DNA of 64,000 nt from positions 159,073 to 223,072 of the forward strand of contig CP144815.1 of assembly GCA_036689405.1 (NCBI GenBank), written 5' to 3'. A program made the translations under genes and the position numbers. The notes below the pieces were generated by a model. It was not told the origin of the DNA, searched no databases, and saw only the letters and a program-made list of their open reading frames with translations. Below, piece by piece: positions 1-64,000 of the stretch. Origin of the DNA: Candidatus Stammera capleta (GTDB lineage Bacteria > Pseudomonadota > Gammaproteobacteria > Enterobacterales > Enterobacteriaceae). Each line of letters begins with the position of its first letter. Within the stretch, counting starts at the first letter, position 1.

Positions 1-1583
1 GTTTAAATACTAAATTATATGTAAAAAACCCAATTAATAATAATAAAATACCATTATGAATAATAAATTTTGCAGAAGAATTATATAATACAAATGCTAT
101 ACTAATATATCCAAATAAAAATAAAAAATATGATAATTTTATAAAAAAATATAAATTTAAAAATAACAAAAATATAAAAAAAAATAAAAAAAATATAAAA
201 AAATATTTAATAAAAAATAAAATAGCAAAAAAAAAAATAATATTTAAATTAAAAGATTGAGTAATATCTAGACAAAGATATTGAGGTGTACCAATTCCAA
301 TAATAAAAAATATAAATAAAAAATATAAAACAATAGAAAAAAATAAATTACCTATTAAATTACCAAAAATAAAAAATAATAATTTTTCTATAAACTTTTT
401 AAAAAAAAATAAAAAATGAAAATATATAAAAATTAAAAATAAAATTTTTAAAAGAGAAACTGATACACTAGATACATTTATCGAATCATCTTGATATTAT
501 GCTAGATATACATCTCCTAAATATAAAAAAAATATATTTAATATAAAAAAAGCTAATTATTGATTACCTATAGATACATATATAGGTGGAATAGAACATG
601 CAACAATGCATTTAATTTATTTTAGATTTATGAATAAATTTTTTAAAAATATAGGATTATTAAAATATACTGAACCAGTAAAAAGATTAATTTGTCAAGG
701 AATAGTTTTATCTGATACTTATTATTATATTAATAATAATAATAAAAGAATATGAATATCACCTAATAATGTTAATAAAATATTAAAAAATAAAAAAATT
801 AAATTTTATTTAAAAAAAAAAAATATAAAATTAACTTATTATGGTATAAGTAAAATGTCAAAATCAAAAAATAATGGAATAAATCCAATAAATATAATTA
901 ATAAATATGGAGCAGATACATTAAGATTATTTATAATATTTTCTGCACCAATAGAAGAAAATCTATATTGAAATGAAAATAATATTAAAGGATGTTATAG
1001 ATTTTTAAATAAATTATGAAATTTAGTATTTAATTTTTCAAAAAAAAATATTAAATATGATAAAAAAAAAAAAATAAATATATATAAATACAATAAAATT
1101 ATATATTTTTTAAATAAAACTATAAAAGAAATAACATATATTATAGATAATAAAACAAATTTTAATACAATTATATCTAAAATAATGATTTTTTTAAATA
1201 TAATTAAAAAAAAAAAAATTAAAAATAAAAAATATTATAATTTAATTAAAAAATGTATAAATACTATTATTATAATATTAAACCCATTTTCCCCTCATAT
1301 TACATTTTATTTATGAAAAATAATGAAAAATAAAAAAAATATAGAAAATTATTCATGACCTAAAATAAAAAAAAAAATAAAAAATATTAAATATAATATT
1401 AATATAGCTTTACAAATAGATGGTAAAACTAAAAAAATAATAAATATAAAAAATAAATATAATAAATATAAAATTATAAAAAAAATAAAAAATAATAACA
1501 AATTAAATTATTTTTTAAAAAACAAAAATATTAAAAATATTATATATATAAAAAATAAAATTATAAATTTTGTAACAAAATAA
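1..1583 (+). CDS. leuS: Leucyl-tRNA synthetase, C-terminal ~527 codons (5' end upstream of window)
   Basis: The frame with codon starts at 3,6,9... was read codon by codon with TGA=Trp. It has no TAA/TAG until TAA 1581-1583. Motifs: KDWVISRQRYWGVPIP (from 252), [49 protein letters not shown] (KMSKS). Confidence 0.95.
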
Positions 1584-1585
1584 TT

Positions 1586-2341
1586 ATGAAAAAAATATAT
1601 TTTTATAAAATAAAAAATACAAATATAAATAAAAAATATAAAATTTTTTTTATAATAGGAAATAATCATATAGATAAACAAAATTGTAAAATATATATAA
1701 AAAAAAAAATATTATTATTTATAAAGAAAAATAGTATTATAAATATAATAATAGATAAAAAATATAATTGAAATAAATTTAAAAATATCTTAATAAAAAA
1801 AAATTTATTTTCAAAAAAAAAATTATTAATTGTAAATATAATAGAAAAAATAAACAAAATAGATAACTATATATTTAATTATATAATAAAAAATATAAAA
1901 AAAAATAATTATATTTATATAATAATAAATTATGATTTTAATTATTTAAATAAAATATATTTTAAAAAAAAAAATATATTAATTATAATATGTAATACAA
2001 ACAATATAAATAATAAAAATAATATTTTTTATTATAAATATATTAATTATAATTATATTAAAAATATAATTCTATTAATTTATAAAAAAAAGATAGAAAA
2101 AATATTATATATAATAGATAAAATTAAAAATGAAAATCATATTAAAATAATATTATTAAATATATTATTTAAATATTTTATAAAAAATTTATATAAATAT
2201 AAAAATATCGAAATTAAAAAAATATTAAATTTAATTAAAAAAAATGAAATAAATATTAAAAATCATACAAATATTGATTGAATTAATTTAAAAATATTAT
2301 TATTAATAATAATGAATAAAAATATATTATATATATACTAA
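1586..2341 (+). CDS. holA: DNA polymerase III delta subunit (short, ~251 codons)
   Basis: ATG 1586 lies 2 nt after the leuS stop, and the frame is open (TGA=Trp at 1769-1771) to TAA 2339-2341. It sits where holA follows leuS in E. coli (lptE missing). Similarity is weak but positionally matched: FFIIGNN ~ LLLGND, and IIIDKKYNWNKF..LFSKKKLLIV ~ SIDPNTDWNAIF..LFASRQTLLLL. Confidence 0.6.
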
Positions 2342-2344
2342 TAT

Positions 2345-4222
2345 TTAAAAATAAATTAATTTATTAATAATATTATTATATTTTTTATTTTTTCTACTTA
2401 TACTATTTAAAAATATATTTTTATTAGAATAAATAGTAACTTTTTTTTTAGCTCTAGTAATAGCAGTATATAATATTTCTTTACTTAATAAATAAGAAAA
2501 ATAATTTGGTAAAATTAATAAAATATGATCAAATTCAGATCCTTGAGATTTATGTACAGTAATTACTCAAGTTAATTTTCAATTAATAAAATTATTAAAA
2601 TAAATAATTTTACAATCATTATTAAAATTAGAAAATAAAATTTTTATTATATTATTATTATAAATAATAAATCCTATATCTCCATTAAATATATTTAAAT
2701 CATTATTATTTTTAGTAATAATAATAGGTTGACCAACATAATAAATTTTATTTTTTTTAAATATATATTTTTTTATATATTTATTTAAAAATAAATTATT
2801 AATATACTTATTTAAGTAATTAGTACCTAATTTTGAATTTTTAATTAAAGAAATAATTTGAAATTTATTAAAATAATATAATAATTTATTATATTTCATA
2901 TTTTTATTATTTAAATAATTAATATAATATTTATATTTTCTTAAACATAAATTAATTAAAAAATTATAATCAAATTTATCTGAATCATAAAAATTTATAT
3001 TACAATTAAAATTATTTTTAATAATAAATTCATCAATTTTATTATAATTACCACAATTTATTAAATTAGAAAATATATTTAAATATTTATTTTTTTTAAA
3101 TCTATAATTTTTTAATAAAAATGATACATTATTATTTAATTTATTAATATTTATAAAAAAATTATAAAAATTAAATTTTCTTTTAAATAAAAATTTTAAT
3201 AATTTTTTTTTTTTTTTAAACAAAGAATAATTATAATTACATATTTTATTTAATAATGAACAAGATTCTATAGGCCCTATTTGATTACTATCACCTATAA
3301 ATATTATTTTTAAAAATTTTTTTTTTAATAAAATAAAAATATAATATAATGTAACTACATCTATCATAGAAAATTCATCTATTATTAAAATACTAAACTT
3401 TAAATCATCATATTCTTTAATATTTACTTCATTAAAATTTAAATTATAATTTAACAATTTATGTATTGTTATTGCTTTATTAGGTAAATTAATATAATAT
3501 TCTTTTTTAATATTTAATAATTTATAATTTTTTTTTAATATATTAGTTAAATTAGAAGAAGATTTTCCAGTAAAAGAAACTATTTTAATAAAATCTTTAT
3601 CTTTTATTTTATATATTTTATATAAAAAAATAATTAATTTAATAATAAGAGTAGTTTTACCAGTTCCTGGTAAACCAGAAATAAAAGATATTTTATTAAA
3701 AAAAACATTAAATGTACAAATTTTTTCATATACATTAAAACAAAATTTTTTAAAATATTTAAATATATAAATAATACTTTTACGTTTTATATTTTCTTCT
3801 TTATTTAAATTTTTTTTTAAAAAATTAACTATATAATTTTCATAAATTCAAAATTTATATAAATAAATATAATCCTTATACAGTATAAAAGGAGTTATAT
3901 TATTTTTATAATATCAACTTATACAATTATATTTAAATAAAATATTTACACTATCATATATATTTATATATTTATTAAAAAAATATATTAAAAAATTATA
4001 TATATATTTAGTAAATATATCTTTACTTAAAATTTTAAAAATCGGAAGACATATATGTCCTAATCTACTAGATAAACTAATTAAAAAACTAAATAACATA
4101 ATAACAGAATAATCAAAATTATTTTTCTTAAAATAAAATTTAGAAAAATATATATCTAATAAATTAGCCTCTTTTTTTTTATAACATGATCATAAAAAAT
4201 TTTCTATTTCATTAAAATACAT
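2345..4222 (-). CDS. recD: Exodeoxyribonuclease V alpha subunit (RecD helicase)
   Basis: One frame runs from ATG 4222 to TAA (tta 2345-2347). It joins track ORFs 3914-4099 and 2579-3457. Gaps 3458-3913 and 2348-2581 were checked and contain only TGA interruptions. Motifs: RLGHICLP, PFILYKDYIYLYKFW, Walker A ISGLPGTGKTT, VHKSQGSEFDHILLILP, YTAITRAKKKV. Confidence 0.93.
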
Positions 4223-4234
4223 AATTAATATTTA

Positions 4235-7200
4235 TTATATTTTTAATAAATTATTTAATTTATAAATTAATTTTTTATTAGGTTTAATATACAAAATACC
4301 ATTATAAGATCTATAATTGTTTTCAATATATAAACCTCTTAAAAAAATATAATATATACCGCCAAAATTAATAGAATAATTATAATTTTTTACATTTAAA
4401 CTTAAATAATTATGTAAAGCTATAGAATATATATGATATTGAATATCATATCTTTTTAATATCATATTGTTTATAATATTTTCTTTATTATAATATAAAA
4501 TATTATTACCAAATCAACTTGATTTATAATCAACAATATAATATTTATTTTTATAAAAAAAAATTAAATCTATAATACCATTTAAATATCCTTTAATAAA
4601 ATTTTTTATATTTAAATTATCACATAAACATGAAATATCATCATATTTTTTTATAATATAATTAAATTTTAAAAAATTAATTTTTTTAATATATAAAATA
4701 AAATCAAATTCTTTTAATATATTATCACATTTAATATTTTTTAAACTTATATTTAATGGATATAAAACTACATTTAATAAATTAAATAATATTTTCTTTA
4801 TATTAAAAAAATATTTTTTTTTAATATTAAAATCATATATATATTTTAATAAAAAATTATTATCTATATCAATATTAAAATTTATTTTTTCCATAACTTT
4901 ATGAAAAAACAAGCCTAAATTTTTACCTTTAGGTAAATTTAAAAAAAATATATTATTATTTAAATTATTATTAATATTATTATTAGATAATATATTTTTT
5001 TTATTTAATAAAACAATTTTAGAATAATTAATTATTCTTTTTATATTTATAATATCTTTACATTTAAAATTATTCTTATGTAAAAAATATTTAATAATAT
5101 AAAAATTATTTTTTTTTATATAATTTATAATATTAATAAATTTAAAATTAATATATTTACATTTTCTAAAAATAAAAATTTTTTTATTGATCTCAGAAAA
5201 ATTAAATTTTCTATTATTACCTATAATTCTACCTATAGAACTAAAACAAAATTTAAAATTTTTATTAAATACTTTATATAAAACAATATTACAAATATAT
5301 ACAGATCTAGTAATAGATACATATAATAAACGCATTTCTTCAGAAATTAATTCTTCATTCATTAAATTATTATATTTTTTAAAATTCAAAAAATCTAAAT
5401 TAGTTCTACAATTTTTACGATTATGATATATATTATAATTATTATATTTATTTAAAAAAAATATAAAAGGCATTCAAACTATATTATACTGTAATCCTTT
5501 TGATTTATGAATAGTAGATATTTTAATTCCATCATCTTCATAAGAAAATGAACGTAAATAATATTCTTTATTATCATTATTATTATTATATATATCATTA
5601 ATCTTTTTATTTAATCAATTTAATAATAATAATTTATCATTAAATAAATAATATTTTTTTTGTAAAATTTCAGATATATGTAATATATTTACATTATATT
5701 GTTCATCTTTATAATTTAAAAAATTAGTTTTTATTTTATTTTTTAAAAAAGAATTTAATAAACAATAAATACCATTATTATTTCATATATTATCATAATT
5801 GTAAAAATCATTTATAACTTTTTCATATATAAAATCATCATTAATAATTTTATCTAAATTACTTAAATCATAATTAAATAAATTAGTAGATAAAGCATTA
5901 CGTATATTTAATTTAGAATTAGGAAAAATTATAGCTTTTAATAAAAAAAAAACTTCTTTAGCTTCTAAAGAATTAAAAATATTACTTTTATTTAATATAC
6001 AATTAACAGGTAAAAAAAACTTTTTTAAAACATCAAAAAAAATTTTTATTTCATAATTCTTATGTACTAATATACAGACATCAGAGGGAATTATTTTTCT
6101 TTTAAAATTATTATTTTTATATAAAAAAATATTATTAGAATTTAAAATTTTATATATTTTTATAGAACAAAATTTAGCTATTTTATATTTATAATTTAAA
6201 CTATTTAAATTATTTAATATAAAAAAATTAATACTATTAAATATTTTATTATTATTTTTAATAATTAAATTTTTATTTTTATAAGAAGGTAAAGTTAATA
6301 AATAATTAGCATCTTTAAAAATGAAAGGGTTATTTATTCTAGTAAATAAAAAATTTATACTTTTAACTAAGAAAAAAGAAGATCTTCAATTTATATTTAA
6401 AATATATAAAAAATCTATATTATTTTTAGATTTAATATAATTAAATATATTAGCACCTCTAAATGTATATATTGATTGTTTAGGATCACCTATAAATATT
6501 ATTTTAGTATTATTCAAAATATTATTTATATATATATTATTAAATATATTAAATTGTAAAAAATCTGTATCTTGAAATTCATCAATTAAAGATATAGGAA
6601 AATTATTTCTAATAATATTAATAAGTATATTATTTTTATCATTACTTAATATAAAATTTAATTTATTTATTAAATCATTAAAACTAATAAAATTATTTTT
6701 CTTTTTATAATAAAATATATTTTTTTTAATATATTTTAAACATTTAAATATAATAAAATTATATAAATCATTAATTCTAATATATAATTTTTCTATATAT
6801 AAAAAAATATTTTTAATATTTGAATTAAAATAAAATTTATATTTTATAATATATTTATATCTAAATTGTTTTAAACAATAAGGAATATAAAAATTAATAG
6901 TTTCCTTATTACACCATAAATTTATATTTTTAAATCAAATATCAATTATTTTTTTATTATATATATTATAAAAATTATTTAAATTAATAAAAAAAATATA
7001 AACTTTTTTATAATTTTTAATTCATATTCTTTTAAAATTATTAATATAAATAATAATTTTATTATAACAATCTTCTATAGAATTATATTTAATTACATTA
7101 ATAAACTTAAAATCTATAAAATTTAAAATAGGATATATAAAATTATATAATTTATCTGGATTAGATCAATAAGAAAAAACTATTTTACTTAAATTATAAG

Positions 7201-7714
7201 ACAAATTATAAAAATATTTACGTCAAAAAAATATTATTATTTTATAAACAAAATTATATTCATAATCTAAAATTTTTAAAGAACTATTAATATTTGAATT
7301 TAAAAAATAAGAAAATAAAATTTTTTTACAAAAACTATGTATAGTATATATAGAAAACATATCAATATTATTTTCATAATTTATTAATACATTTAATATA
7401 TTAGGAATATTTTTAATATATATAAATATTTTTTCTATATAATCATTAAAAAATATATTTTTTATAAAACAAATACGTAATTTTCTTATATTATCTAATA
7501 TTCTTTTTTTTATTTCCAAACACGCTAAATCAGTAAAAGTAACAACTAATATATTATTTATAGATAAATTTAAAAAATTACTTTCTATATTAATATTCAA
7601 TAAAAAACGTAAATATAATAATGATAAAATATTTGTTTTTCCAGTACCAGCTGAAGCTTCTATTAAATTAGATTTTCCTAAATATATATTTAAAAAATTT
7701 AAATTATCTATCAT
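4235..7714 (-). CDS. recB: Exodeoxyribonuclease V beta subunit (RecB helicase-nuclease)
   Basis: The gene runs from ATG 7714 to TAA (tta 4235-4237). Track ORFs 7223-7714, 4514-5473 and 4235-4465 share one frame. Gaps 5474-7222 and 4466-4513 were checked codon by codon and contain only TGA. Motifs: LIEASAGTGKT (motif I) and the C-terminal nuclease IVDYKSSW...RYDIQYHIYSIALHNYL...FGGIYYIFLRG. Confidence 0.93.
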
Positions 7715-7721
7715 ATTATGA

Positions 7722-10700
7722 TTAATATTTTCTATTATTAATTATTAAATTATTAAAAACTGGTAATAACCAATTTTCTATTTCAGATATTATAAATTCA
7801 ATATTTAAAAAATTATAATATTTTTTAATTACATAAGATATATAAATATCATCTATTTCCCCTTTAATAAAAAAATTTCCATACAAAGTATTAAATAATT
7901 TTTCTTTAGCTTTATTTAAACAATATTCATTTAAAATCTTTTTTTTATTAAAACCATAAGAAGAAAAAATTCATATATTAGATGATTTAGGTAAAAATAA
8001 TAATGGATAATTACAACCATTTAAATATGCATTTACATATTTATTAATATATTTTATACATATATTTTTATTTAAAGGTTTAAAACATCATATTCCATTA
8101 TATCCATATAAATAACTACAACTATTACCTTCAATATAACAATATATTAAATGATCTATTCAAAATAATAAAGCATCTATTAAATTTAATTTTTTAGGTA
8201 ATCATTTAAATAAACCAAATTTATCATATCTATATATATAACCTTTTATAAAAAAATTATTAAATTTAAAATTAATATTTATTCTATTTATTTTAAAATA
8301 ATATTTTTTAATATTATTAACTAGAAAAAAAATATTTTCTTTTTCTTTTTCTCATAATATATTACCTAAAAAACTTAATGGTAAAAAATTTAAATGTTGT
8401 AAATATAAAAAAATATTTTTATTATATTCATATTTTAATAAAATATTTATAATTTTATATCTAATTAAATAAATTCTTTTTATATTTAAATTAAAAAATT
8501 CATTTTTATTAATATAAATATCAGAAATAAAATAATTAATTTTATTAAAAAAATATAAAAAATATTTTATTGGATTTGTTCAAAAATTATGTAATTGTAT
8601 TAAATTAATAATATATTTACCTTTATATTTATTAAAATAATAATTCCTATTTACATAATTTAATATATTTAAATTATATTTTTCTTTAATTATTTTCTTT
8701 TTAATGTATATACTTTTTTTTTTATTTAATTTATAAAAATCAATTTTTTTTATAAATGTATCTATATAATTTTTAAAAAATATTAATAATATAGAAGGAA
8801 AACAAAAATTATTTTTTATAAAACAAAAATTAACATAACTAATATACAATATATTACAAAATAGAATTTTTTGTAAAAATAAATATTTATTATAACCTAT
8901 TTTATCACGATCACCTAATCTTGGATTAAAATTAATTAAATTAAAATCACAATAAACTTTATTTTTAAGAAATATATTTTCGTTCATTCCTATTAAACAT
9001 GTAATTTTAAAAAATAAAGATTCAGAATAAATAAATGAACAAAAATTTATACAATCTATAGAATAAATTTTTTTTTTATTTTTATATTTTAAAAAATTAA
9101 TTAAAATTTTTTTAAAAATATTTATATCTATATATTTATTAAATTTACATATATTATAATTTTCTAATATATTAATAAAATTTTTTTTATTTAAAAATAT
9201 ACTTTTATTAATATATTTTTTATAAAAAAAAACATTTATAAATTTTATACAAATAAAAACTCAATCATTAAATAAATATTTTTTATTCAAAATATCTTTT
9301 CAATATAATACTTTATAAATAAAATCACATATTTTTTCAATTAAATTATAATAAAAATTATTAGATAAAAAAGTATAAGGAATAATATTATTTCAAATAC
9401 AATATTCATTATTTATACAAAAACCTAATAATATTCTTCTTAAACTATTTATTCAAGTTAAATAATTAAATTTTTTATAATAAAACATATTATTTTTTAA
9501 ATTTATATTTAAACCTATATTTTTAATAATATATATTATTATTTTTAATTCCTCATAATTTATATTAAATTTTTTAAATATTATTTTTTTTTTTAAAAAA
9601 CATAATAATTCAGTAAAATTATATTCTAAATTTGATATATTTAATAAATTTAAAAATATATTTAATAATTCATTTTCATAAATATAATTATTATCTTCTA
9701 AAATTTTATACGGTAAATATTTTTTATATTTTAAATCAGAAAAAACAGAATTAATATACGAATAATATATATTAATATCAGTAACATTAACTATTATATC
9801 ATTTATATTATAATTTTTATTTATAATTAAATCTAACAAAAAATTTTTTAATTTTTTAACTTCTTCTAAATACCCACAAGATCTACTTATTACTATAGAA
9901 TTATCTTTATTTTTATAACTATATTTTTTATTAAAAACAATATCTTTAAAATTTAATATATTATATTTAATAATATTTAATTTATTATTATTATTAATAT
10001 TTAAAAAATAACTCACTTCTTTAATATTTAATTTTAATAATAATAATAAAGTTTCAGAAAAACTTTTTCCATAATTTAACAATAATGAATTATAATTATT
10101 TTTAATATTATAAAATTTATAAATAAAAGAATATTTTTTTTTTCTTTTCAAAAAAATATTTTTTTTATTATCAAAATAAAATTTTTCATATCAAAATTTA
10201 TATGATGGATTAAATAAAAAATAATAAACATTTCTATATTTAGATATTGAATATAAAATATCTAAATGAATAGGAGGTATAAATGATATATTAAATAAAC
10301 AAATATAATTAATTATATTTTTAGGGAAAATAAAATTTTTATTTTTTAATATTTTTAAAATTTTTATATAAATATCAGATTTATTTCACTTATATGAAAA
10401 ATTATTAATAAAATATTTTACTATTTTTCTTCATAATATAGATTGTCATTTTTGATGAATAAAATTATTAATATTTTTTATATATCTATAATTTTTTCAT
10501 TCATATAATCAATCTATTCTATACATTAAATATTCATCATATATATTAGAAATTTTAAAAGATAAATTAAATAATTTTTCATAATTATAATCATCTTTTA
10601 AATAATTTTTAATAAATAAAAACTCTTTTAAATCAATAACTTTAGGTAATATATTAAATATTACTCAAACTAAATTATATTTATTAAAATAATATTTTTT

Positions 10701-10949
10701 TGATATATCAGGTATAATATTTTTACAAAATTTTCATATAAAATCACCAACTAATAAAAAATTAAAGTTTGCACATATACCTAATTTTTCAGCTAAAAAA
10801 ATTTTTAAATTTAAAGATATATTTTTATTAGAAATTAATATAAATATTTTTGATAAAAAAATATTATTTATATTATTTTCTTTTTTTATAATAGATAATA
10901 TATTTCTTTTTAAAATATCTAAATTATTAGATTGATATAATGTAAACAT
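7722..10949 (-). CDS. recC: Exodeoxyribonuclease V gamma subunit (RecC)
   Basis: The gene runs from ATG 10949 to TAA (tta 7722-7724). Track ORFs 10734-10949, 9453-10151 and 8580-8987 share one frame. All gaps (7725-8579, 8988-9452, 10152-10733) were checked and contain only TGA. N-terminus MFTLYQSNNLDIL ~ E. coli MLRVYHSNRLDVL. It lies directly upstream of recB (ptrA absent). ~1075 codons. Confidence 0.88.
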
Positions 10950-11476
10950 ATATTTAAAAAAACAAATAATATATTTTTAATATAAATAAATTTATCCATA
11001 ATTATTGATAAAAATAATAAGAAAATACAAAAAAAATACTCATTTTTTTTATTAAAAAATAAAAAAAAAATAGGAATTCTAAATTTAAATTTATATGGTC
11101 ATAAAAAATTTATACCTTTATAAGTAAACATATCACATAAAATATGACTAAAATAACCTAAAAACATAATATATATTATGTTAGAATTAATATTTAAAAA
11201 AAAAAAATTTATATATAAAACAAATAAAACAAAAAAAATTAAACCAAATAAACTATGAGTAATAGTTCTATGTCCAAATAAATTATATATTATAATAGAA
11301 ATAAATTTTAATTTATTACCTAAAAAAGATTTAGGATGATCTATATCAGGTAATACACATGATAAAAAACAAAAAGGAATAATATATAATAAATATAAAA
11401 TATTAAATAAATTTAAAATTTTTAAAAAAAATATTATAAAAGATAAACAAAAAATTAAATGATTTTTTATACACAC
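10919..11476 (-). CDS. ydjM: YdjM/DUF457-family membrane-bound metal-dependent hydrolase
   Basis: Start is GTG 11476. Motifs: CVLPDIDHPKSFLG, FGHRTITHS, GYFSHILCDMFTYKGINFLWPYKFKFRIPI (E. coli: LLWPCRWRFRLPIL). The W is TGA at 11099-11101. Reading through it gives ~185 codons ending at TAG (cta 10919-10921), close to the ~196 of E. coli YdjM. The 3' end overlaps the recC start. Confidence 0.8.
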
Positions 11477-11490
11477 AAAAATTCCTTTAT

Positions 11491-11574
11491 AATATATAAT
11501 TATTATATATATATATGTAATATATACATATATATATATATATATTATATATTATATATATATAATATAATATT
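11491..11574. repeat. (TA)n-rich low-complexity tract in the divergent ydjM / thrS intergenic region
   Basis: This is nearly pure alternating TA with a few G/C interruptions (tatatatatgtaatatatacatatatatatatatatattatat...). It lies between two divergently transcribed genes, so it presumably carries both promoters. No specific -10/-35 can be singled out in this composition. Confidence 0.5.
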
Positions 11575-12812: not shown

Positions 12813-12822
12813 GGATAAAACT

Positions 12823-13363
12823 ATTAAAAATTATAAAAAAAAAAGATATTTTAAAAAATATAAAATTAACAATGAAATTAAAAGTTATAAAATAAAGTTA
12901 ATAAATAATAAAGACAAAAATAAAAATATAATTTTAACAAAAGAAGCATTAAAAATAGCTAAAGATCTTAATTTAGATTTAGTAGAAATAAATCCTAACT
13001 TTAATCCACCAATATGTAAAATATTAAATTATGGAAAATATATATATAAAAAAAAAAAAAAATAATAAAAAACATAAAAACAACAAAAAAATACAAATAA
13101 AAGAAATAAAATTTAGATTTAATACAGATAAAAATGATTATAATATAAAAATAAATAATATAATAAAATTTATAAATAAAAAATATAAAATTAAAATTTC
13201 AATTATATTAAGAGGAAGAGAAATAATACATAAAAATTTAGCAATAGATATGTTAAATAATATAAAAAAAAAAATAAAAAAAAATAATAATAAAATTATT
13301 TTTATAAAAAAAATCACAGAAAATAGACAAATTTCAATGATATTAATATCTAAAAAAAAATAA
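12823..13363 (+). CDS. infC: Translation initiation factor IF-3, reading frame broken inside an A15 tract (13048-13062)
   Basis: The N-domain frame (ATT 12823, preceded by AAGGA 12811-12815) reads KINNEIKSYKIKLI...LDLVEINPNFNPPICKILNYGKYIYKKKKK and stops at TAA 13063-13065. The C-domain (IQIKEIKFRFNTDKNDYNIKINNIIKFI...ILRGREIIH...) is in the next frame, open from 13028 to TAA 13361-13363. There is no in-frame ATG/GTG/TTG ahead of the N-domain, consistent with the classical AUU start of infC. Confidence 0.85.
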
Positions 13364-26596: not shown

Positions 26597-27268
26597 ATGA
26601 TTAATTTTTCAATTAAAGAAATGATAAAAGCAGGTATACATTTTGGTCATCAAACAAAATACTGAAACCCAAAAATGAAACCTTATATATATACAAAATA
26701 TAATAAAATACATATTATTAATTTAAATAAAACTATTAAATTATTTAATATAGCAATTAAAGAATTAAAAAAAATGCAAAAAGAAAAAAAAAAAATACTA
26801 TTTATAGGAACAAAAAAACCTGCATCTAAAATTATTAAAAAAACAGCAATAATTTGTAATCAATTTTATATAAATAAAAGATGACTAGGAGGAACATTAA
26901 CAAATTGAAAAACAGTAAAAAAATCAATTAAATATTTAAAAAAATTAGAAAAAGAATATAAAATATTATTATTAAATAAATATATAAAGAAAAAGGAAAT
27001 ATTATTAAAAAAAAAAATATTAAAAAAACTTAAAAATAACCTAGAAGGAATAAAAAATATGAAAGGATTACCTGATGCTATATTTGTAATAGATTCAAAA
27101 TATGAAAAATTAGCAGTAAAAGAAGCAAAACAATTAAAAATAAAAATTTTTTCTATAATAGATACTGATAATAATCCAGATAATATAGATTATATTATTC
27201 CAGGAAATGATGATTCAATAAAATCTATAAAATGATATTTAAACATAATATGCAAAAAAATAAATTAA
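26597..27268 (+). CDS. rpsB: 30S ribosomal protein S2
   Basis: [23 protein letters not shown](TGA 26663-26665)NPKMKPYIY ... W(TGA)LGGTLTNW ... IPGNDDSIKSI matches E. coli S2. Stop is TAA 27266-27268. Confidence 0.95.
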
Positions 27269-28023: not shown

Positions 28024-28058
28024 AAAATAGTATATTAAATATAATAATATAATAAATT

Positions 28059-28142
28059 GGAGGTATGGCCGAGTGGTTTAAGGCAACGGTCTTGAAAATC
28101 GTCAACGTTTATCGTTCGAGAGTTCGAATCTCTCTACCTCCG
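28059..28142 (+). tRNA. tRNA-Ser (anticodon UGA, reads UCN), long variable arm, no encoded CCA
   Basis: GGAGGTA acceptor pairs with TACCTCC, followed by discriminator G. Anticodon stem ACGGT/ATCGT carries loop CT-TGA-AA. Long variable arm; T-arm AGAGTTCGAATCTCT. It is a sharp GC island in an AT background. Downstream sequence is TTTAT, not CCA. Confidence 0.9.
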
Positions 28143-28351
28143 TTTATATTTTTTTTTAAAAAAAAAATAATTAAAAAATAAAAAAAAATAATTTATATTT
28201 AATAATAAAAATAATAAATAAAATATATATAAAAATTTTCAAAAATAATACTAATATATTTATATATATAAAAATATTAAAAATATAAAAAATTAAATAT
28301 TTAAATATTATAATAATAATGTAATTTTTTTTTATAATATAAATATATATT

Positions 28352-34906: not shown

Positions 34907-35758
34907 ATGAAAAAAAAATGTATTTATGTTTCTATTATAGGTAGATCTAATGTAGGAAAATCTACTTTATTTAATAAATTGATAAATAAAAAAATATCTA
35001 TAATTTCTAAAAGAAAGAATACTACTAAAAAATATATTTTAGGTATAAATACAATAAAAAATAATCAATATATATATATTGATACTCCAGGTTTTAATAG
35101 CTATAAAAGTTTTAAAAAAATATTTTATAAAACATATTCTTTTTTAAATAAAAATAATTTAAAAAATAAAATAAATTTAATAATAATAATTATAGAAAAT
35201 AAAAATTTTTTTTATGAAAAAAAAATAATAAAGAAAATAAATATCAAAAATATACCATTATTAATTTTAATAAATAAAATGGATAAAATAAAAAATAAAA
35301 AAATTATACTTCCCTTTATAAAAATATTAAAAAATGATATAAAATACAAAGATATTATACCAATAACTATTAAAAAAAAAAAATATATAAAATATTTACA
35401 AAATATAATAAATAATTTCTTAATTGAATCTAAACATTACTTTAAAAAAAAAATAAAAACAATACATAATATAAAATTTATAATTAAAGAGATAATAAAA
35501 GAAAAAATTTTAAAATTTATAAGAGAAGAAATACCATATTCAGTACTAATAAAAATTAAAAAAATAATAAATTTAAAAAAAAAAAAAATAATCTTTTGTA
35601 ATATATATACAAAAAAAAAAAGACATATAAATATAATAATAGGAAAATCAGGTAAAAATATAAAATATATAAATAATTTATCTGAAATAGATATAAAAAG
35701 ATATTATAATAATAAAAAAAAAATAAAATTATTTATTCATATAAAAAATAAATGATAA
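34907..35758 (+). CDS. era: GTPase Era
   Basis: VSIIGRSNVGKSTLFNKL (G1), DTPGF (G3), INKMD (G4), and a KH-domain C-terminus. The gene ends ...IKNK-W(TGA 35753-35755)-TAA 35756-35758. The start codon abuts the rnc stop. Confidence 0.92.
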
Positions 35759-36402
35759 ACTGAAAAAATATTATAAATAAAGAAAAAAAAAAAAAATATT
35801 TTATAAAAATGAAATATTTTTTAGAAAAAGAATATAAATATAAAATAATATATCCTAAAAAAAATAAAATTTTTGAAGCATTTAAAATTACAAAATTTGA
35901 AAATATTAAAGTAGTTATTATAGGACAAGATCCTTATTGTAATAAAGGTCAATCACACGGTCTTGCATTTTCTTTATTACCTAATATAAAAATTACCCCA
36001 TCATTGTATAATATATATAAAGAAATAAAAAATGAATATCCAAATTATAAAATTCCTAAAAATGGTTATTTACTAAACTGAGCTAAACAAGGAATTTTAT
36101 TATTAAATAGTATTTTAACTGTCGAAAATAAAAAAATTTTATCTCATAAAAATATAGGATGAGAAATATTTACTGATAATATAATTAAATATATAAATAA
36201 ATATACTAATAATACTGTATTTTTATTATGAGGTAAATTTGCACAAAAAAAAAAAAAATTAATTAATAAAAATAAACATTTAATATTAATTTCTTCTCAT
36301 CCTTCTAAATACTCTTTTAAAAAAGGATTTTTAAATTGTAATCATTTTATAAAAACTAATATATTTTTAATTAAAAAAAAAAAAAACCCAATATTATGAT
36401 AA
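35752..36402 (+). CDS. ung: Uracil-DNA glycosylase
   Basis: MINW(TGA)KNIINKEKKKKYF ~ E. coli LTWHDVLAEEKQQPYF. Motifs: VVIIGQDPYCNKGQSHGLAFS, W(TGA)AKQGILLLNSILTV, FLLW(TGA)GKFAQ, SSHPSKYSFKKGFLNCNHF. ATG 35752 overlaps the era end; ATG 35809 is a possible alternative start. Confidence 0.88.
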
Positions 36403-36403: not shown

Positions 36404-37411
36404 TTAATAATTAATACCTATATATTTATATATATTATAAATATTATTTTTAGCTATTTTTTTAGCTTTTAATTTTCCATTTAATAAAACTTTTTTTAAA
36501 AAATTTTTATTTTTTCTAAAATAAACATATTTTTTTTGTAATTTTTTTAAAAAAATATTTAATTCATAAATAAATAATTTTTTAAATTCTTTATATGAAC
36601 AATTAATAAATTTATTTTCTAATTTAGAAATAGAAATATTTTTTATACTAGAAAATATATTTAATAAATTAGATATACCAGGTTTTTTTATTTTATCATA
36701 TAATATTCTAGGAGGAAATTGAGAATCAGTTAAAGAATTATTAATTTTATTTTTTATTTCAATACTATTATCTAATAAAAAAATAACATTATTTTGATTA
36801 ATATCTGATTTAGACATTTTTTTAAAAGGATTACATAAAGACATTATTTTAGAACCATTTTTAGATAAAATATAATCAGGAATAATAAATATATTCTTAG
36901 AATATAATTTATTAATTCTTTTAGCAACTAATCTAGTTAGTTCTAAATGTTGTATCTGATCATAACCTATAGGAACATAACTAGTATTGTATAATAATAT
37001 ATCAGAAGACATTAATATAGGATAATTTAATAAACCACAATTTATATTGTTATTATTTTTACTTTTAATTTTATCTTTAAATTGCGTCATACGATTTAAT
37101 TCACCAACATATGTATAACAATTTAATAATCAATAAAGTTTCATATGTTCTATAATATGAGATTGTAAAAAAATAGCACAATTCATTGGATTTATTCCAA
37201 TAGATAATATTATAGATAATAAATCATAAACATTATTTTTAATATTAATTTTATTTTTTGTATTAGTTAATGCATGTAAATCAGCAATACAAAAAAAACA
37301 ATTATATTTATTTTGACTATATAATCAATTTTTTAATACTCCAATATAATGACCAATAGTTAATTTTCCTGTAGGTTGTATAGCACTAAAAACATTTTTT
37401 TTAATAATCAT
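36404..37411 (-). CDS. trpS: Tryptophanyl-tRNA synthetase
   Basis: [23 protein letters not shown](TGA)...FFCIADLHALT...GYDQIQHLELTR...KMSKS. The N-terminal part is joined to track ORF 36404-37090 in the same frame. ~335 codons. Confidence 0.93.
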
Positions 37412-37413: not shown

Positions 37414-41625
<4,212 letters not shown>

Positions 41626-41661: not shown

Positions 41662-45681
<4,020 letters not shown>

Positions 45682-50870: not shown

Positions 50871-52202
50871 CTATAAAATAAATCCATATAATGAACTATT
50901 CTTATTCTTTAATATTTTTACATCTATTATTTTACCTATTAAATTACATCTATCACTTTTAAAATAAACAATCTTATTATTTAAACAACGACCATAATAA
51001 TAATTATTTTTTTTAGTATATCCTTCTACTAAAATTTTTTGTACAGTTTTTAACATATTTTTACTTCAATAAATAGAATTCTTATTTAATAAAGATTGAA
51101 TTTTATTTAATCTATTTTTTTTTACAAATATAGAAACATTATCTTTCATTTTATACGATTTTGTTCCTTCTCTAGGAGAATAAATAAAAACATAACTATT
51201 ATCAAATTTTATTTCTTTAATTAAATCTAAAGTTAATTTAAAATCTTTATCATTTTCAGATGGAAAACCAACTATAAAATCTGAACCAAATAACATATTT
51301 GGTCTTATACTTAATAATTTATATATAATATTTTTATAATATTTTATATTATAATTTCTTCCCATAATATTTAAAATTCTATCAGACCCACTTTGAACAG
51401 GTAAATGTAAATAATTAACTATTTTAGAAATATTTTTATAACATAAAATTATATCATCTTTAAAATCTAAAGGATGACTACTAGTAAATTTAATCCTTTT
51501 AATTCCATCAATCTCTGAAATTAAATTTAATAAATATGAAAAATTACATTTTTTACCATTAGATAAATAACTAAAATAAGAATTTACATTTTGTCCTAAT
51601 AAATTAACCTCACATATACCATTAGAAACTAAATAATTTATTTCAGAAATAATATCTTTTGGAGAACGACTTATTTGTCTACCTCTAGTAAAAGGAACAA
51701 CACAATAAGAACAAAATTTATTACATCCTTCCATAATAGTAACAAAAGTATTATATAAATAATTATTATTTTTATTTATATAAAAAATATTTTTATTTAT
51801 ATTTTTAGAAAAATTTACATTAACTATTTTTTTTTTATTTTTATAAAAATTTTTAATTAAAATAGGAATATCTTTAATATTTTGTGTTCCACAAACAATA
51901 TCTATTATTTTCCATTTTAATAATAATTTATCTTTTTCTTTCGAAGCAATACAACCACAAACAATAATTAATAAATCATTTTTCTTTTTTTTAAATTCTT
52001 TAATTTGATTTAAATAAGAATATAATTTATATTCAGCTTTTTTTCTAACAGAACAAGTATTTAAAATTATTATATCTGAATCAAATCAAGAATTAACTAA
52101 AAGATACTTTTCGGATGAATTAAATAAATATGAAATAATTTTATCAGAATCATATTTATTAATTTGACATCCTCATGTTTTTATATATAAATTTTTACAC
52201 AT
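50871..52202 (-). CDS. miaB: tRNA-2-methylthio-N6-dimethylallyladenosine synthase (radical SAM)
   Basis: LYIKTW(TGA)GCQINKYDS, ILNTCSVRKKAE, and the radical-SAM cluster motif MEGCNKFCSYCVVP. Track ORFs 51066-51734 and 50871-51056 are in one frame. Stop is TAG (cta 50871-50873). ~443 codons. Confidence 0.92.
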
Positions 52203-52234: not shown

Positions 52235-52307
52235 TAGCTATGATGGGAATTGAACCCATGACCTCAGCGTTATGAATGCTGTGCTCTACCAACTAAGCTA
52301 CATAGCC
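52235..52307 (-). tRNA. tRNA-Met (anticodon CAU; elongator type by resemblance to E. coli metT), no encoded CCA
   Basis: Reverse complement: GGCTATGTAGCTTAGTTGGTAGAGCACAGCATTCATAACGCTGAGGTCATGGGTTCAATTCCCATCATAGCTA. It folds as a cloverleaf with a CAU anticodon. It lacks the initiator features (no 1:72 mismatch, no GGG/CCC anticodon stem). A lysidine-modified tRNA-Ile2 cannot be fully excluded from sequence alone. Confidence 0.8.
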
Positions 52308-52313
52308 TTTTAA

Positions 52314-52384
52314 CGGGGGTACCAGGATTTGAACCTGGGATCTCGGGATCAAAACCCGATGCCTTACCACTTGGCTATACCCCA
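52314..52384 (-). tRNA. tRNA-Gln (anticodon UUG), no encoded CCA
   Basis: Reverse complement: TGGGGTATAGCCAAGTGGTAAGGCATCGGGTTTTGATCCCGAGATCCCAGGTTCAAATCCTGGTACCCCCG. It is very close to E. coli tRNA-Gln, with a U1/C72 unpaired first pair. Confidence 0.9.
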
Positions 52385-52390
52385 AAAAAT

Positions 52391-52471
52391 TACGGAAGAC
52401 GAGATTTGAACTCGTATACAATTAAGTACTAGATTCTAATTCTAGTGCGTCTACCATTTCGCCACTTCCGC
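52391..52471 (-). tRNA. tRNA-Leu (anticodon UAG, reads CUN), long variable arm, no encoded CCA
   Basis: Reverse complement: GCGGAAGTGGCGAAATGGTAGACGCACTAGAATTAGAATCTAGTACTTAATTGTATACGAGTTCAAATCTCGTCTTCCGTA. Anticodon stem CTAGA/TCTAG carries loop AT-TAG-AA. This matches the leuW type, and its neighbours Gln and Met match the E. coli metT-leuW-glnU...metU cluster beside miaB. Confidence 0.88.
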
Positions 52472-52514
52472 AATATATTTTATATAAAAAATAAATATAT
52501 TATATAATAATATC

Positions 52515-55185: not shown

Positions 55186-55255
55186 TTTAATATATTATAT
55201 ATTATATATATAATAATATATATTATTATAAATTTAAAATAGGAATTAAAAAAAT

Positions 55256-55852: not shown

Positions 55853-55876
55853 TATATATATATAATATAAAATATA

Positions 55877-56274: not shown

Positions 56275-56308
56275 AAAATTAAATTAATTTTAAAAAAAAT
56301 ATAAAAAT

Positions 56309-59300
56309 TTATTTCTTTACTAATTTTATATAATTAGCTAAAAAAATATTTTTATAATTATTATTTTGATATTTTAAATAACCATTAATAATAATAATAT
56401 TATATAAATCTAAAATAGAATAATATTTATTATATATATTTTTAAAAATTAATACATCTATATTATTAGTATTATCATCTAAATTTAATATACAAATACG
56501 ATTATTATTTTTAGTAGATATAAATTTTATATCAGTAATTAAACCAAATATATTAACAAAATTATTAATCTTCATAGATAATACTTTTTTTATATAAATA
56601 AAATTAATTTTATTTTTAATAATATTAATATATTTATTTACAGGATGATCGGTTAAATAAAATCCTAAAGATTCTTTTTCTTTATTTAAAATACTTTTAT
56701 AATTTAAAGATGGTATAGATTTATTAATTTTTCTATACATATAAGAATCTAAAATATCTTTTCTTTTAAATAAAAATAATTGTTTAAAATTTAAATTACT
56801 ATTATAATTTTTTATAATATATAAAATTTTTTTTATATTATCAAATAATATTGATCTATTTATATTAAAAATATCTAAAGAACCAGAAAAAATTAATTTT
56901 TCTAAAACTAATTTAGTTATTTTATTATTATATATTAATCTACAAAAATCAATATAATTTTTAAATAAACCATATTTATTTCTAATATCTATAATATGTT
57001 TTATAGAGCTTTTCCCTATACCTTTAATAGCTCCTAAACCATAAACTATTTCTCTTTTTTTATTAATAAAAAAATAATAAGAACTTAAATTAATATTAGG
57101 AGAAATTACTTTAATATTCATTTTTCTAGCTTCATTAATAACTAAAATTATTTTTTTTATATTACTTATATCAGAATTCATTATAGATATTAAAAATTCA
57201 GAAGTAAAATTAGCCTTTAATCATAAAGTTTGATATGCTAATAAAGCATAAGATACTGAATGAGATTTATTAAAACCATAACTAGCAAAATTTTTCATTA
57301 AAGAAAATATTTTTAAAGAAAAATTTCCATCTATTCCTAAAGAAACAGAACCCTTACGAAATATTTCTTCATGAATTTTCATTTGTTTATGATCTTTTTT
57401 AGTCATAGCTAATCTTAATTCATCAGCTTTTTCTAAACTATAATTAGCTAAAACTTGAGCTATTTTCATTACTTGTTCTTGATATAATATTATTCCATAA
57501 GTATATTTTAATATAGGTATTAATAATTTATGTTGTCAATCTTTATCAGGATAATATATAACTTCTTTACCATTTTTACGATTAATAAAATTATCAACCA
57601 TTCCGGATTGTAATGGACCAGGTCTAAATAAAGCCAACAAAGAAACTATATCATTAAAATTATCTGGATGTAATTTATTTATTAATTTTCTCATTCCATT
57701 AGATTCTAATTGAAAAACACCTATAGTTTCAGATTTTTGTAATAATTTAAAACTTAATTTATCATTTAATGATATTTTATTAATATTAAATTTATTAATT
57801 AAACATTTATTACTATTTATTATATTAATAGTATTACTAATAATAGTTAAAGTTCTTAAACCTAATAAATCAAATTTTACTAAACCAATATATTTTATAT
57901 CCTCTTTATCAAATTGTGTAAATATTTTTTCTGTATTTTTATCATAATATGTAGCACAAAAATTCACTATAGGAGTAGGAGATATAATTATTCCTCCTGC
58001 ATGTTTTCCTATTCCTTTAATAATCCCCTCTAATTTAGAAGAAATATCAATTAAATATTTAATATCTTTATTAGAATTATATAAAACATTAAGTTTATTT
58101 TCTAATATAAATGCTTTTTTAAAAGTTATATTTATATCTAAAGGTATTAATTTAGCTAAATAATCAACAAAACGATATGAATAACCTAATACTCTACCTA
58201 CATCTCTTAAAACAGATTTTGCTGTCATAGTACTAAAAGTTACAATTTGAGCTACAGAATTACAACCATATACATTTTCTAGATGTAAAAATACTTTATC
58301 ACGATTTTTCATACAAAAATCAATATCAAAATCTGGCATTGAAATTTTTTCAATATTTAAAAATCTTTCAAAAATTAAACCAAATTTTATAGGATCAACA
58401 TCAGTTATATATAATAAAAATGCAACTAAAGAACCAGAACCAGAACCTCTACCTGGACCAACATAAACATTATTATCTTTAGATCATTTAACAAATTCCA
58501 TAACTATTAAAAAATAATCAGAAATATTTAATTTAAATATTACATCTAATTCTTTATATATACGTAATAAATATTTATTTTTTAATTTAATATTTTTATC
58601 AAAAAATAATCTTTTATTTAAACCTATAAAAACTTTTTTTTTTAAATAATTATTAGAAGAATATTTTCCTTTATAAGGAAAATTAGGTAATATAATTTTT
58701 TTTTTTTTAATTAAAAAATTACATATATAAGAAATTTTAATAGTATTAAATAAAGAATCTTCAATATTATAAAATAAATCAAACATTTCATCCTGAGATT
58801 TAAAATAATATTGATTTGTATAATCTATTAAAGAAGACACTTTATCTAATGTACAATTATAATATATAGAAGAACGAATTTTACTTATATAAAAATCATT
58901 TTTATTAAAAAATAATATTTTATTTGTACAAACTAAAGATACTTTATTTTTTTTAGAACATAATATTGTATCTTTTAAATATATATTTTGATTTTTATGA
59001 TTTAATTTAAATACATTTAAATATAAATTATCACCAAAAATTTTTTTTAATAAAAATATATGTTTATTAACTTTACTAATATCATAGAAAAAAAATTTTT
59101 TAATATTATAAGAATAATAATTTATAGAATATATTAATATTAAACCATTACAAAATTTACATAACAATTTATAATCAATATATAAAATTTTTAATTTATA
59201 ATAATTTTTATAAGCAATAGAAATTAATTTCATTAAATTATAATATCCTACTTTATTAATTATTAATAAAGTAGAAAAATTAATACTATTAATATCTTTG

Positions 59301-59521
59301 TAATATATACTAACATCAACCCCAAATATAGGTTTTATTCCATAAAATAAAGATTTTTTATAAAATTTAATAATACCAGATAAATTAAAATAATCTGTTA
59401 AAGCTATAGAAGGCATATTAAAATAATATGCTTTTTTTAAAATATCATTTATTTTACATATACTATCTTTTATAGAATAATCACTATGTACATTAAGATG
59501 AATAAATTTAGGAGAAAACAT
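56309..59521 (-). CDS. dnaE: DNA polymerase III alpha subunit (~1070 codons; C-terminal tau-binding tail apparently absent)
   Basis: Four track ORFs are in one frame. [16 protein letters not shown]...[20 protein letters not shown] (PHP domain), [42 protein letters not shown], and an OB-fold [20 protein letters not shown]. The ORF ends about 40 codons after the OB fold. Confidence 0.95.
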
Positions 59522-59536
59522 AAATAAACAATTATT

Positions 59537-60019: not shown

Positions 60020-60033
60020 ATACAATATACCTT

Positions 60034-62493: not shown

Positions 62494-62495
62494 TT

Positions 62496-63215
62496 CTAGT
62501 TTTTTCCAAATTTTCTATTTCTTAAAAAAAAATTATTAAGTATATTTTTAAAATTAATACAATTAAAATCAGGTCATAAAATATTTATAAAAAAAAATTC
62601 AGCATATGCAATTTGTCATAATAAAAAGTTACTTATTCTTTTTTCTCCTCCAGTACGTATTAGTAAATCTACTGGAGGTAAATTACCTAAACATAAATTT
62701 TTTTCTATTAAATTTTCACTAATATCTTTAATATCAATAATATTTTTATTATTTTTTTTAATTATTTTTTTTATACAATTTATAATATCTCATTTACCAC
62801 CATAATCTATAGCAATATTTAATTTTAATCCATTATTATTTTTAGTTAAAATTTGTATATTTTCTATATTCTTTTTAAAATTAAAACAAAAATTTTTTTT
62901 ATTACCTATAATATTTACACAAATATTTTTTTCATGTAAATTATACATTAATTTTTTTATAGTTAAAGAAAATAATCTCATTAATTCCGACACTTCTAAA
63001 TCAGATCTAGATCAATTTTCAGTACTAAATGCATATAAAGTTAATATATTTAATTTATTTTTAACAGAAAAATCAATAATTTTTACTAAAGATTGTAAAC
63101 CTTTTTTATGTCCCAAAATACGAGATAAACCTTTTTTAATTGCTCACCTACCATTACCATCCATAATAATAGCAATATGTTTAATACTACTAAAATCATT
63201 ATTATTTTTTAACAT
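62496..63215 (-). CDS. uppS: Undecaprenyl-diphosphate synthase
   Basis: HIAIIMDGNGRW(TGA)AIKKGLSRILGHKKG, LTLYAFSTENW(TGA)SRS, IAIDYGGKW(TGA), DLLIRTGGEKRISNFLLW(TGA)QIAYAEF. Stop is TAG (cta 62496-62498), 2 nt before the bamA ATG. Confidence 0.93.
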
Positions 63216-63225
63216 TTTTCTAAAA

Positions 63226-63783
63226 TTATATATTTAATATATTCTTTTTTTTATTTTTAAATAAAGTAACTAATTTTTCTATATATAAATTAGTTATTTC
63301 TTGTAATAAAAAATTAAATTCATTTATTTCATCTTTATTATTTTTAATAAAAGATTTAAATTTAATTTTAAAATATTTTCTTACATTTCTTATAGAAATT
63401 TTAGATAATTCAAATTCTTTTTTTAATAATTTAATTAAATAAAATCTTTTTTCTTCTGTTAAAGGAGGTATATATATTAATATATCATCATTATCTTCAT
63501 TAATATTTAAATCTAATTTTAAAGATAAAATAGATTTTTTAACAATATTTTTAATACTTTTATCAAATAAACCAATTCTAAAACAATTTTTTCTTTCTAT
63601 AGATATATTTGATAATTTATATAAAAATACTTTTTTATTATAATAATCTATTAATAAATTAGAAATAATATTAGTATCTAAAAAATTAATATTAAATTTA
63701 TTAATTTTTTTTTTAAAATTTATTAAACATAATTCCATTTTTTTTTTTATATGTTTTTTACTTATATTTTCTAAAATACTCAT
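63226..63783 (-). CDS. frr: Ribosome recycling factor
   Basis: Uninterrupted 185-codon ORF. IPPLTEEKRFYLIKLLKKEFELSKISIRNVRK ~ RRF IPPLTEERRKDLVK..AE.A.VAVRNIRR. It lies upstream of uppS as in E. coli (dxr missing). Confidence 0.92.
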   Translation of the reverse strand: MSILENISKKHIKKKMELCLINFKKKINKFNINFLDTNIISNLLIDYYNKKVFLYKLSNISIERKNCFRIGLFDKSIKNIVKKSILSLKLDLNINEDNDDILIYIPPLTEEKRFYLIKLLKKEFELSKISIRNVRKYFKIKFKSFIKNNKDEINEFNFLLQEITNLYIEKLVTLFKNKKKNILNI

Positions 63784-63814
63784 ATAAAATTATTATACCT
63801 TATTATAAAATATA

Positions 63815-64000
63815 TTAATCATCTAAAAAACTTTTTAATAAACAAGATCTACTAGGATGACGTAATTTACGTAAAGCTTTAGATTCTATTTGTCTTATTC
63901 TTTCTCTAGTAACATCAAATTGTTTGCCAACTTCTTCTAATGTATGATCACTATTCATATCTATACCAAAACGCATTTTTAAAACTTTAGCTTCTCTTGG
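63815..64000 (-). CDS. rpoD: RNA polymerase sigma-70 factor, C-terminal ~61 codons (5' part beyond window)
   Basis: The reverse translation [61 protein letters not shown] is almost identical to E. coli RpoD region 4 and C-terminus (...RSFLDD). Confidence 0.93.

Follow-up and report, generated by a model that had tools for sequence, protein, structure and literature searches.

UGA read as tryptophan in a 64-kb chromosomal segment of Candidatus Stammera capleta

A 64,000-nucleotide stretch of contig CP144815.1 (positions 159,073 to 223,072, assembly GCA_036689405.1), assigned to Candidatus Stammera capleta and referred to here as the window, raises a direct question: are the TGA triplets that interrupt most of its genes stop codons, or are they read as an amino acid? 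Translated with table 11, the longest open reading frame (ORF) in the window has 645 codons, whereas with TAA and TAG as the sole stops rpoC becomes an ORF of 1408 codons and rpoB one of 1342. Under translation table 4, and only under it, the window (1..64000) appears as a dense array of about 52 intact protein genes. Their in-frame codons include 144 TGA and 7 TGG, with zero TAA or TAG, and at least one TGA is present in 41 of the 52 genes (79%), with up to 18 in one gene (recC). The best explanation of the data as a whole, which we consider almost certain, is that the window belongs to a code-4 Stammera strain in which UGA would be read as tryptophan by a tRNA-Trp(CCA) following the loss of release factor 2 (RF2).

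A Codetta-style test was applied to the coding assignment. The window was translated with TGA masked as X, which keeps Trp from biasing the alignment, and compared by blastp with Escherichia coli K-12 ORFs from nine K-12 regions carrying orthologues. E. coli Trp was found opposite 96 of 110 aligned in-frame TGAs (87%), while the background share of Trp among the aligned E. coli positions is 0.6–1.2%. Of the remaining 14 aligned TGAs, which stood opposite L, R, Y, H, F, V, A or gaps, nearly all belong to fast-evolving proteins. Read from the E. coli side, the Trp columns held TGA in 96 cases and TGG in 4, the remainder being Y, I, F or L. The reading of UGA as Trp under table 4, proposed in a preliminary description of this DNA, is thus supported by the masked alignment. 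The six codon coordinates that accompanied the proposal are all exact, comprising the TGAs at 282-284 (LeuRS RYW-GVPIP), 26663-26665 (S2 YW-NPKM) and 34096-34098 (LepB SRYW-GF), the minus-strand TGAs at 41536-41538 (RpoC IRSW-SYGEV) and 11099-11101 (YdjM LLW-P), and the TGG at 25846-25848 (Map DGWTV). The Trp codon is likewise TGA in the AhpC CPAQW, UppS DGNGRW, L28 HRFW and NusG LWYVVQ motifs.

The correspondence extends across individual genes. The 3' part of leuS (3..1583, plus strand; its start lies before the window) contains 11 in-frame TGAs, all 11 opposite E. coli Trp, including the one in the RYW motif. On the minus strand, 8 of the 9 TGAs in recB (4235-7714) and 17 of the 18 in recC (7722-10949) face E. 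coli Trp, and recD (2345-4222) carries 5 in-frame TGAs. In rpsB (26597..27268, plus strand) the same holds for 3 of 4 TGAs, that of the YW-NPKM motif included. For the minus-strand RNA polymerase genes, the counts are 7 of 8 in rpoC (37414..41625), the IRSW-SYGEV codon among them, and 3 of 3 in rpoB (41662..45681). All five TGAs of uppS (62496..63215, minus strand), including that of DGNGRW, also fall opposite E. coli Trp.

The same columns bear on the proposal that UGA encodes a different amino acid, namely glycine (table 25), selenocysteine or cysteine. Gracilibacteria and Absconditabacteria do read UGA as Gly, and its use for Sec is widespread. Nevertheless, Gly or Cys was found opposite none of the 110 TGAs aligned with E. 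coli K-12 orthologues, where Trp occupied 96, and the same sites are TGG in code-11 Stammera. In addition, no tRNA-Sec or tRNA-Gly(UCA) was detected in the window or flanking loci, and the only tRNA-Gly in the retrieved loci has the anticodon TCC. Judged by the column test, these readings can be regarded as already refuted, with a probability that is vanishingly small.

A within-genus control was provided by strain CP144777.1 (GCA_036689265.1, 312 kb; locus L030 1-21701). Across 18 genes of this locus, 0 in-frame TGA and 66 TGG codons were counted, together with two TGA stops, whereas CP144853.1 (locus L029), equally poor in G+C, has 64 TGA and 3 TGG. In a codon-by-codon alignment of adjoining DNA of the window strain itself (from L017, whose 6.5-kb overlap with the window shows 100% identity; the DNA compared lies just outside the window), 16 of 17 TGAs matched a TGG of CP144777.1. 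The corresponding figures are 44 of 52 TGAs for CP144817.1 and 55 of 66 for CP144853.1. CP144777.1 uses the standard code, which independently confirms the code-11 Stammera lineage described in a 2026 preprint (bioRxiv 10.64898/2026.05.24.727570). The E. coli Trp-column test and the correspondence with TGG in code-11 Stammera are, at the level of sequence, strong evidence that TGA stands for Trp.

Codon usage in the window genes points in the same direction. The TGA share of TGA:TGG is 95%, close to that of TTA in TTA:TTG (97%), AGA in AGA:AGG (96%) and AAA in AAA:AAG (97%). Because this ratio resembles those of the other NNA/NNG pairs, TGA acts as a full synonym of TGG, the two being at mutational equilibrium. 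The TGAs are also conserved across Stammera strains that differ by 10–30% in DNA, with some TGA/TGG swaps. Collectively, the alignments show UGA to behave as a sense codon for tryptophan, supplying 95% of Trp codons, with UAA and UAG as the sole predicted terminators.

These observations also address the possibility that the window contains pseudogenes of a decaying genome, the in-frame TGAs being ordinary nonsense mutations. Tiny symbiont genomes do gather nonsense mutations, and infC in the window is truly split, by a frameshift in a tract of 15 A residues. However, the genes are interrupted by TGA only and never by TAA or TAG, even though composition would make TAA much the most frequent triplet. 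Random decay would further have to place 87% of the aligned TGAs on Trp columns and retain them among strains 10–30% apart in DNA. It would also have to affect the essential genes rpoB, rpoC, leuS and dnaE, all of which carry TGA. The Trp-column specificity seen in the alignments already refutes this explanation, to which we assign a negligible probability.

The ends of the genes were consistent with the use of only two stop codons. The 52 genes terminate in 49 TAA and 3 TAG (ydjM, miaB and uppS), with 0 TGA, and, in alignment, table-4 ORFs share their C-terminal ends with the orthologous E. coli proteins. The stop-codon usage given in the preliminary description, in which no gene needs a TGA stop and TAG is restricted to these three genes, is confirmed by these counts. 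A special situation was observed in the adjacent genes era and ung (34907..36402, plus strand), each of which terminates in TGA-TAA. In era, a TGA (35753-35755) directly precedes TAA (35756-35758), and in ung the TGA at 36397-36399 directly precedes the TAA at 36400-36402. The era TGA overlaps the ATG of ung (35752-35754) in an ATGA motif, within the string ATGATAA (35752-35758). A TGA stop and one extra C-terminal Trp are indistinguishable at these two ends, which are ambiguous but harmless. They are probably fossil TGA stops that would now add one C-terminal Trp before a back-up TAA.

The absence of TGA stops is relevant to a further alternative, in which UGA is still a stop codon recognised by RF2 and is bypassed by low-level readthrough, as in the Providencia siddallii PSOF and PSLP intermediates. 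Two observations favour it: the tRNA-Trp keeps a CCA anticodon (see below), and some code-4 Stammera assemblies retain prfB (bioRxiv 10.64898/2026.05.24.727570). Against this, TGAs in 79% of genes, and up to 18 of them in recC, would leave almost no full-length product under partial readthrough. A TGA:TGG ratio at the mutational equilibrium of the other NNA/NNG pairs implies that there is no detectable selection against TGA, and no gene ends at TGA. Moreover, UGA occurs in only about 1% of PSOF/PSLP genes (PMC10540940). Leaky readthrough with RF2 still present is therefore very unlikely, and a full reassignment of UGA to tryptophan is preferred.

How UGA is decoded was addressed through the tRNA-Trp genes. 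These were read in sister strains rather than in the window strain itself, CP144817.1 being a 94%-identical sister; the loci were reached through homologues of Stammera TrxA and ProS, giving 20-kb loci from eight strains including CP144817.1. A tRNA-Ile(GAT)–tRNA-Trp(CCA) pair was present at the same site in all eight strains, just upstream of a HIT-family gene and proS. In locus L018, the tRNA-Trp(CCA) gene lies at 4767-4841 on the minus strand, and it also occurs in loci L020, L022, L024, L025, L027, L029 and L030. No UCA-anticodon tRNA was found in the 20-kb loci of the eight strains, where every tRNA-Trp has CCA. The UCA anticodon anticipated in the preliminary description is thus contradicted in 8 of 8 Stammera strains, and the literature agrees. 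Because in that description a CCA-only tRNA-Trp would disprove recoding only if joined by an intact RF2 gene, the CCA anticodon does not in itself refute recoding. It does imply a decoding mechanism unlike the one used by Mycoplasma, Hodgkinia and Nasuia. In E. coli, rrnC-aspT-trpT precedes trxA-rho. A location of trnW just upstream of trxA, guessed from this order, was only loosely right, as trnW lies about 5 kb upstream and beside tRNA-Ile, not beside an rRNA operon.

Covariance-model alignment of the tRNA-Trp sequences revealed a U11:A24 D-stem pair in all eight strains, the code-11 strain included. The D-stem reads GUUU/GAAC in the code-4 strains, GUUU/AAAU in the code-11 strain and GUUC/GAGC in E. 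coli (U11.G24). A24 is the state of the Hirsh suppressor, which lets E. coli tRNA-Trp(CCA) read UGA, and it is widespread in bacteria. Since the standard-code strain has A24 and A24 is common in bacteria, it would be at most permissive and not the trigger; as a sufficient explanation of the reassignment it was rejected, CP144777.1 having A24 too. No paper linking A24 with Stammera was found in the literature searched. In the anticodon stem, the 27:43 pair is formed (A27:U43 or U27:A43) in 8 of 8 strains, which gives a 5-bp stem. A G30.U40 wobble was observed in 6 of the 7 code-4 strains; the seventh has G30:C40, as do the code-11 strain and E. coli. That this wobble tracks the code change is suggestive, resting on a single code-11 sequence.

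Two window genes are connected with this tRNA. The tryptophan--tRNA ligase gene trpS (36404..37411, minus strand), which contains 2 in-frame TGAs, encodes the enzyme that charges the sole tRNA-Trp. The gene miaB (50871..52202, minus strand, TAG stop) is retained. In E. coli, MiaB makes ms2i6A37 in tRNAs reading UNN codons, tRNA-Trp included, and by analogy the retained miaB may help UGA decoding here.

Based on these data, a sequence of events can be proposed. The tRNA-Trp would already have been permissive, with U11:A24 and a 5-bp anticodon stem, before the code changed. RF2 would then have been lost, leaving UGA without a terminator, and UGA would have come to be read by the single near-cognate tRNA-Trp(CCA), with C34 pairing with A at the third codon position. 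Afterwards, extreme A+T mutation pressure would have turned nearly all TGG into TGA. The era–ung ATGA overlap with its immediate TAA, and the TGA-TAA end of ung, are compatible with this order. A more specific version holds that one tRNA-Trp(CCA) with an ordinary 5-bp stem and pre-existing A24 reads UGA at full efficiency, that RF2 loss and not a tRNA change was the trigger, and that G30.U40 was perhaps later tuning; this version is offered tentatively and is more doubtful than probable.

Several points weigh against the proposed decoding of UGA. The absence of RF2 in this strain rests on the literature, in which some code-4 Stammera assemblies keep prfB; in our data, prfB was found neither in the window nor in the retrieved flanks of the 244-kb genome. 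A24 also occurs in the code-11 strain and is common in bacteria, so that it is not by itself the cause of efficient UGA reading. The proposal also demands that C34 read A efficiently enough for 95% of Trp codons. Finally, a context effect of A after UGA is known from E. coli readthrough, and no such effect is in evidence here. In the window genes, A following TGA was not enriched (44% versus 52% background), and the idea that a following A promotes the reading of UGA is unsupported.

The identity of the strain was examined in several ways. A search with the window Frr against one genome per species returned Candidatus Stammera capleta metagenome-assembled genomes only, apart from two weak Pelagibacteraceae matches, with CP144817.1 as the best match (86% protein identity); the window strain does not itself figure among these representatives. 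Over its final 10.8 kb, the window is collinear with CP144817.1 at 94.4% DNA identity. The corresponding DNA identity is 90% for CP144813.1 and CP043985.1 and 72–76% for two more distant strains, and orthologue order is the same across the Stammera strains compared. Exact records of ten TGA-free window proteins exist in both NCBI and Logan, on a contig of 244,218 bp. A Logan contig from a beetle run (SRR23946980_564, run SRR23946980) shares 6.5 kb with the window at 100% identity. The length of 244,218 bp and the window G+C of 13.7% agree with the size and composition of Stammera genomes (about 0.22–0.34 Mb, 14–20%); across 49 Stammera genomes the reported ranges are 13.9–20.4% G+C and 0.22–0.34 Mb (PMC13462651). 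These identities place the window in the chromosome, about 244 kb long, of a strain of Candidatus Stammera capleta.

The nearest non-Stammera ProS matches were from Buchnera, Blochmannia, Wigglesworthia and beetle Enterobacteriaceae symbionts, and NCBI taxonomy places Stammera within the Enterobacteriaceae symbiont group. The Gram-negative, Enterobacterales-like background noted in the preliminary description fits these relatives, which are Enterobacterales symbionts. The Frr matches and DNA identity show that the lineage is not an unplaced or new one: it is Candidatus Stammera capleta, one of the handful of UGA-to-Trp insect symbionts to which that description refers. Stammera is an extracellular, pectin-digesting and gut-associated symbiont of Cassidinae leaf beetles (tortoise beetles).

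The genes identified in the window comprise leuS, holA, recD, recB, recC, ydjM, thrS, infC, rpmI, rplT, pheS, pheT, ppa, pmbA, pgk, pgpB, rnz, glnS, map, rpsB, tsf, ligA, gltX, lepA, lepB, rnc, era, ung, trpS, rpoC, rpoB, rplL, rplJ, rplA, rplK, nusG, secE, murB, ybeY, ybeZ, miaB, prmB, ycfH, holB, ahpC, rpmB, dnaE, skp, bamA, uppS and frr. The window contains neither a polygalacturonase gene nor a 16S rRNA gene. Within the 13.7% G+C of the 64-kb window, most stretches have about 10–12%. Between 36001 and 48000, G+C rises to 17–23% across rpoC and rpoB, consistent with RNA polymerase being under tighter amino-acid constraint than the remainder of the genome. Four tRNA genes were detected in the window, with neither a tRNA-Trp nor any UCA-anticodon tRNA among them. 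The tRNA-Ser at 28058..28143 (plus strand) has a TGA anticodon, reads UCN and takes no part in UGA decoding. The tRNA-Met(CAT), tRNA-Gln(TTG) and tRNA-Leu(TAG) genes (52235..52472, minus strand) adjoin miaB, and a tRNA cluster of like kind occurs near E. coli miaB, an Enterobacterales-type arrangement.

Additional observations concern the structure of individual genes. The infC gene for IF3 (12799-13363, plus strand) is split into an N-terminal frame (12799-13065) and a C-terminal frame (13028-13363). The frame shifts inside the A15 run at 13048-13062, where one A less or two A more would give full-length IF3. Transcriptional slippage rescue and a homopolymer assembly error are both possible causes; slippage rescue at poly(A) tracts has been described in other endosymbionts. 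Upstream, thrS (11610-12812, plus strand) encodes only about 400 residues. Their alignment with E. coli ThrRS begins near residue 236 and continues to the end of that protein; the N-terminal TGS and editing domains are absent. A 104-codon ORF upstream of thrS (11178-11492) showed no family match. Both ligA and dnaE are without C-terminal segments found in E. coli: ligA (28352-30058, plus strand) encodes 568 residues versus 671 in E. coli, with the alignment ending 149 residues short of the E. coli end, and dnaE (56309-59521, minus strand) encodes 1070 versus 1160, ending 102 residues short. For the 225-codon ORF at 25066-25743 (plus strand), similarity to E. coli-type SpeD (S-adenosylmethionine decarboxylase) is confined to the C-terminal 160 residues of SpeD and lies well under the family cut-off; the ORF may be a degenerate or strongly diverged speD. 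There is no ATG within the first approximately 100 codons of rpoC, which has a GTG start at 41623-41625 (minus strand) preceded by AGGA, and none near the 5' end of ydjM (10919-11551, minus strand). Since both are without a nearby ATG start, gene callers restricted to ATG would shorten them.

The use of code 4 in Stammera is not new. UGA-to-Trp reassignment in this genus goes back to Salem et al. 2017, as cited in PMC10540940 and PMC8629427, and a Codetta screen counts Stammera among the known cases (PMC8629427). In Table 2 of the Providencia siddallii paper, Stammera is listed with prfB absent, a trnW that still reads UGG (that is, CCA), 15.4% G+C and UGA in 62% of coding sequences (PMC10540940). 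About 50 Stammera genomes were reported by Garcia-Lozano et al. 2023/2024, and the 50-genome Stammera study used code 4 for annotating all genomes (bioRxiv 10.1101/2023.12.12.571295). The 5-bp anticodon stem of Stammera tRNA-Trp(CCA) has been described (PMC13092985). Furthermore, tRNA-Trp(UCA) has been reported in no Stammera genome, prfB is lost in most Stammera and present in some code-4 assemblies, and code 11 and prfB both persist in five genomes that form a basal clade (bioRxiv 10.64898/2026.05.24.727570). The Stammera reassignment is also already part of NCBI taxonomy and of the Codetta and gTranslate benchmarks. The finding is thus a correct rediscovery, with nothing new about the code itself, known since 2017. 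In practical terms, DNA of this strain needs table-4 annotation, since about 80% of its genes come out broken when genes are called under the standard code. With code-4 and code-11 strains, near-identical gene order and a CCA-only tRNA-Trp, Stammera represents a good natural system for a stop-to-sense switch, and the comparison of tRNA-Trp between code-4 and code-11 strains is the only, modest lead left.

Finally, the system was compared with known cases of UGA reading. Translation table 25 does not describe it, since 0 of 110 TGAs stood opposite Gly and the sole tRNA-Gly has TCC. Mycoplasmatales, Candidatus Hodgkinia cicadicola and Candidatus Nasuia deltocephalinicola resemble it in table 4 and the absence of RF2; they decode UGA by a cognate tRNA-Trp(UCA) (PMC10540940, PMC13462651), whereas Stammera has none. 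Such a cognate tRNA is common but not universal in code-4 bacteria, as Zinderia is also without it. Candidatus Zinderia insecticola, a betaproteobacterial spittlebug symbiont, reads UGA as Trp with about 13.5% G+C, has lost prfB, and its sole tRNA-Trp is CCA (PMC10540940, PMC13092985). However, it belongs to another class, its reassignment arose independently, and its tRNA-Trp has a 4-bp anticodon stem (PMC13092985) compared with 5 bp in Stammera. The tRNA-Trp(CCA) of the Blastocrithidia/Zinderia type with a 4-bp stem is therefore not the one seen here, 27:43 being paired in 8 of 8 Stammera strains. Candidatus Providencia siddallii PSAC, a leech symbiont, likewise descends from Enterobacterales; it reads UGA as Trp and has kept tRNA-Trp(CCA) (PMC10540940). 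In PSAC, prfB is kept and itself contains UGA, UGA occurs in only 20% of genes, and about 9 genes seem to need a UGA stop (PMC10540940). In the Stammera window, by contrast, 79% of genes contain TGA and none needs a TGA stop. The Hirsh UGA-suppressor tRNA-Trp of E. coli (G24A) has in common with that of Stammera the CCA anticodon and the U11:A24 D-stem pair, a state that in E. coli allows tRNA-Trp to read UGA. A24 is native in Stammera, the standard-code strain included, so that it is not sufficient. The closest likeness is to the known Stammera genomes, from which no difference of substance was observed. The window has 94.4% DNA identity to CP144817.1, with the same gene order, code 4 and a CCA-only tRNA-Trp; its 13.7% G+C is near the published 13.9–20.4%, and the 244-kb chromosome lies within 0.22–0.34 Mb.

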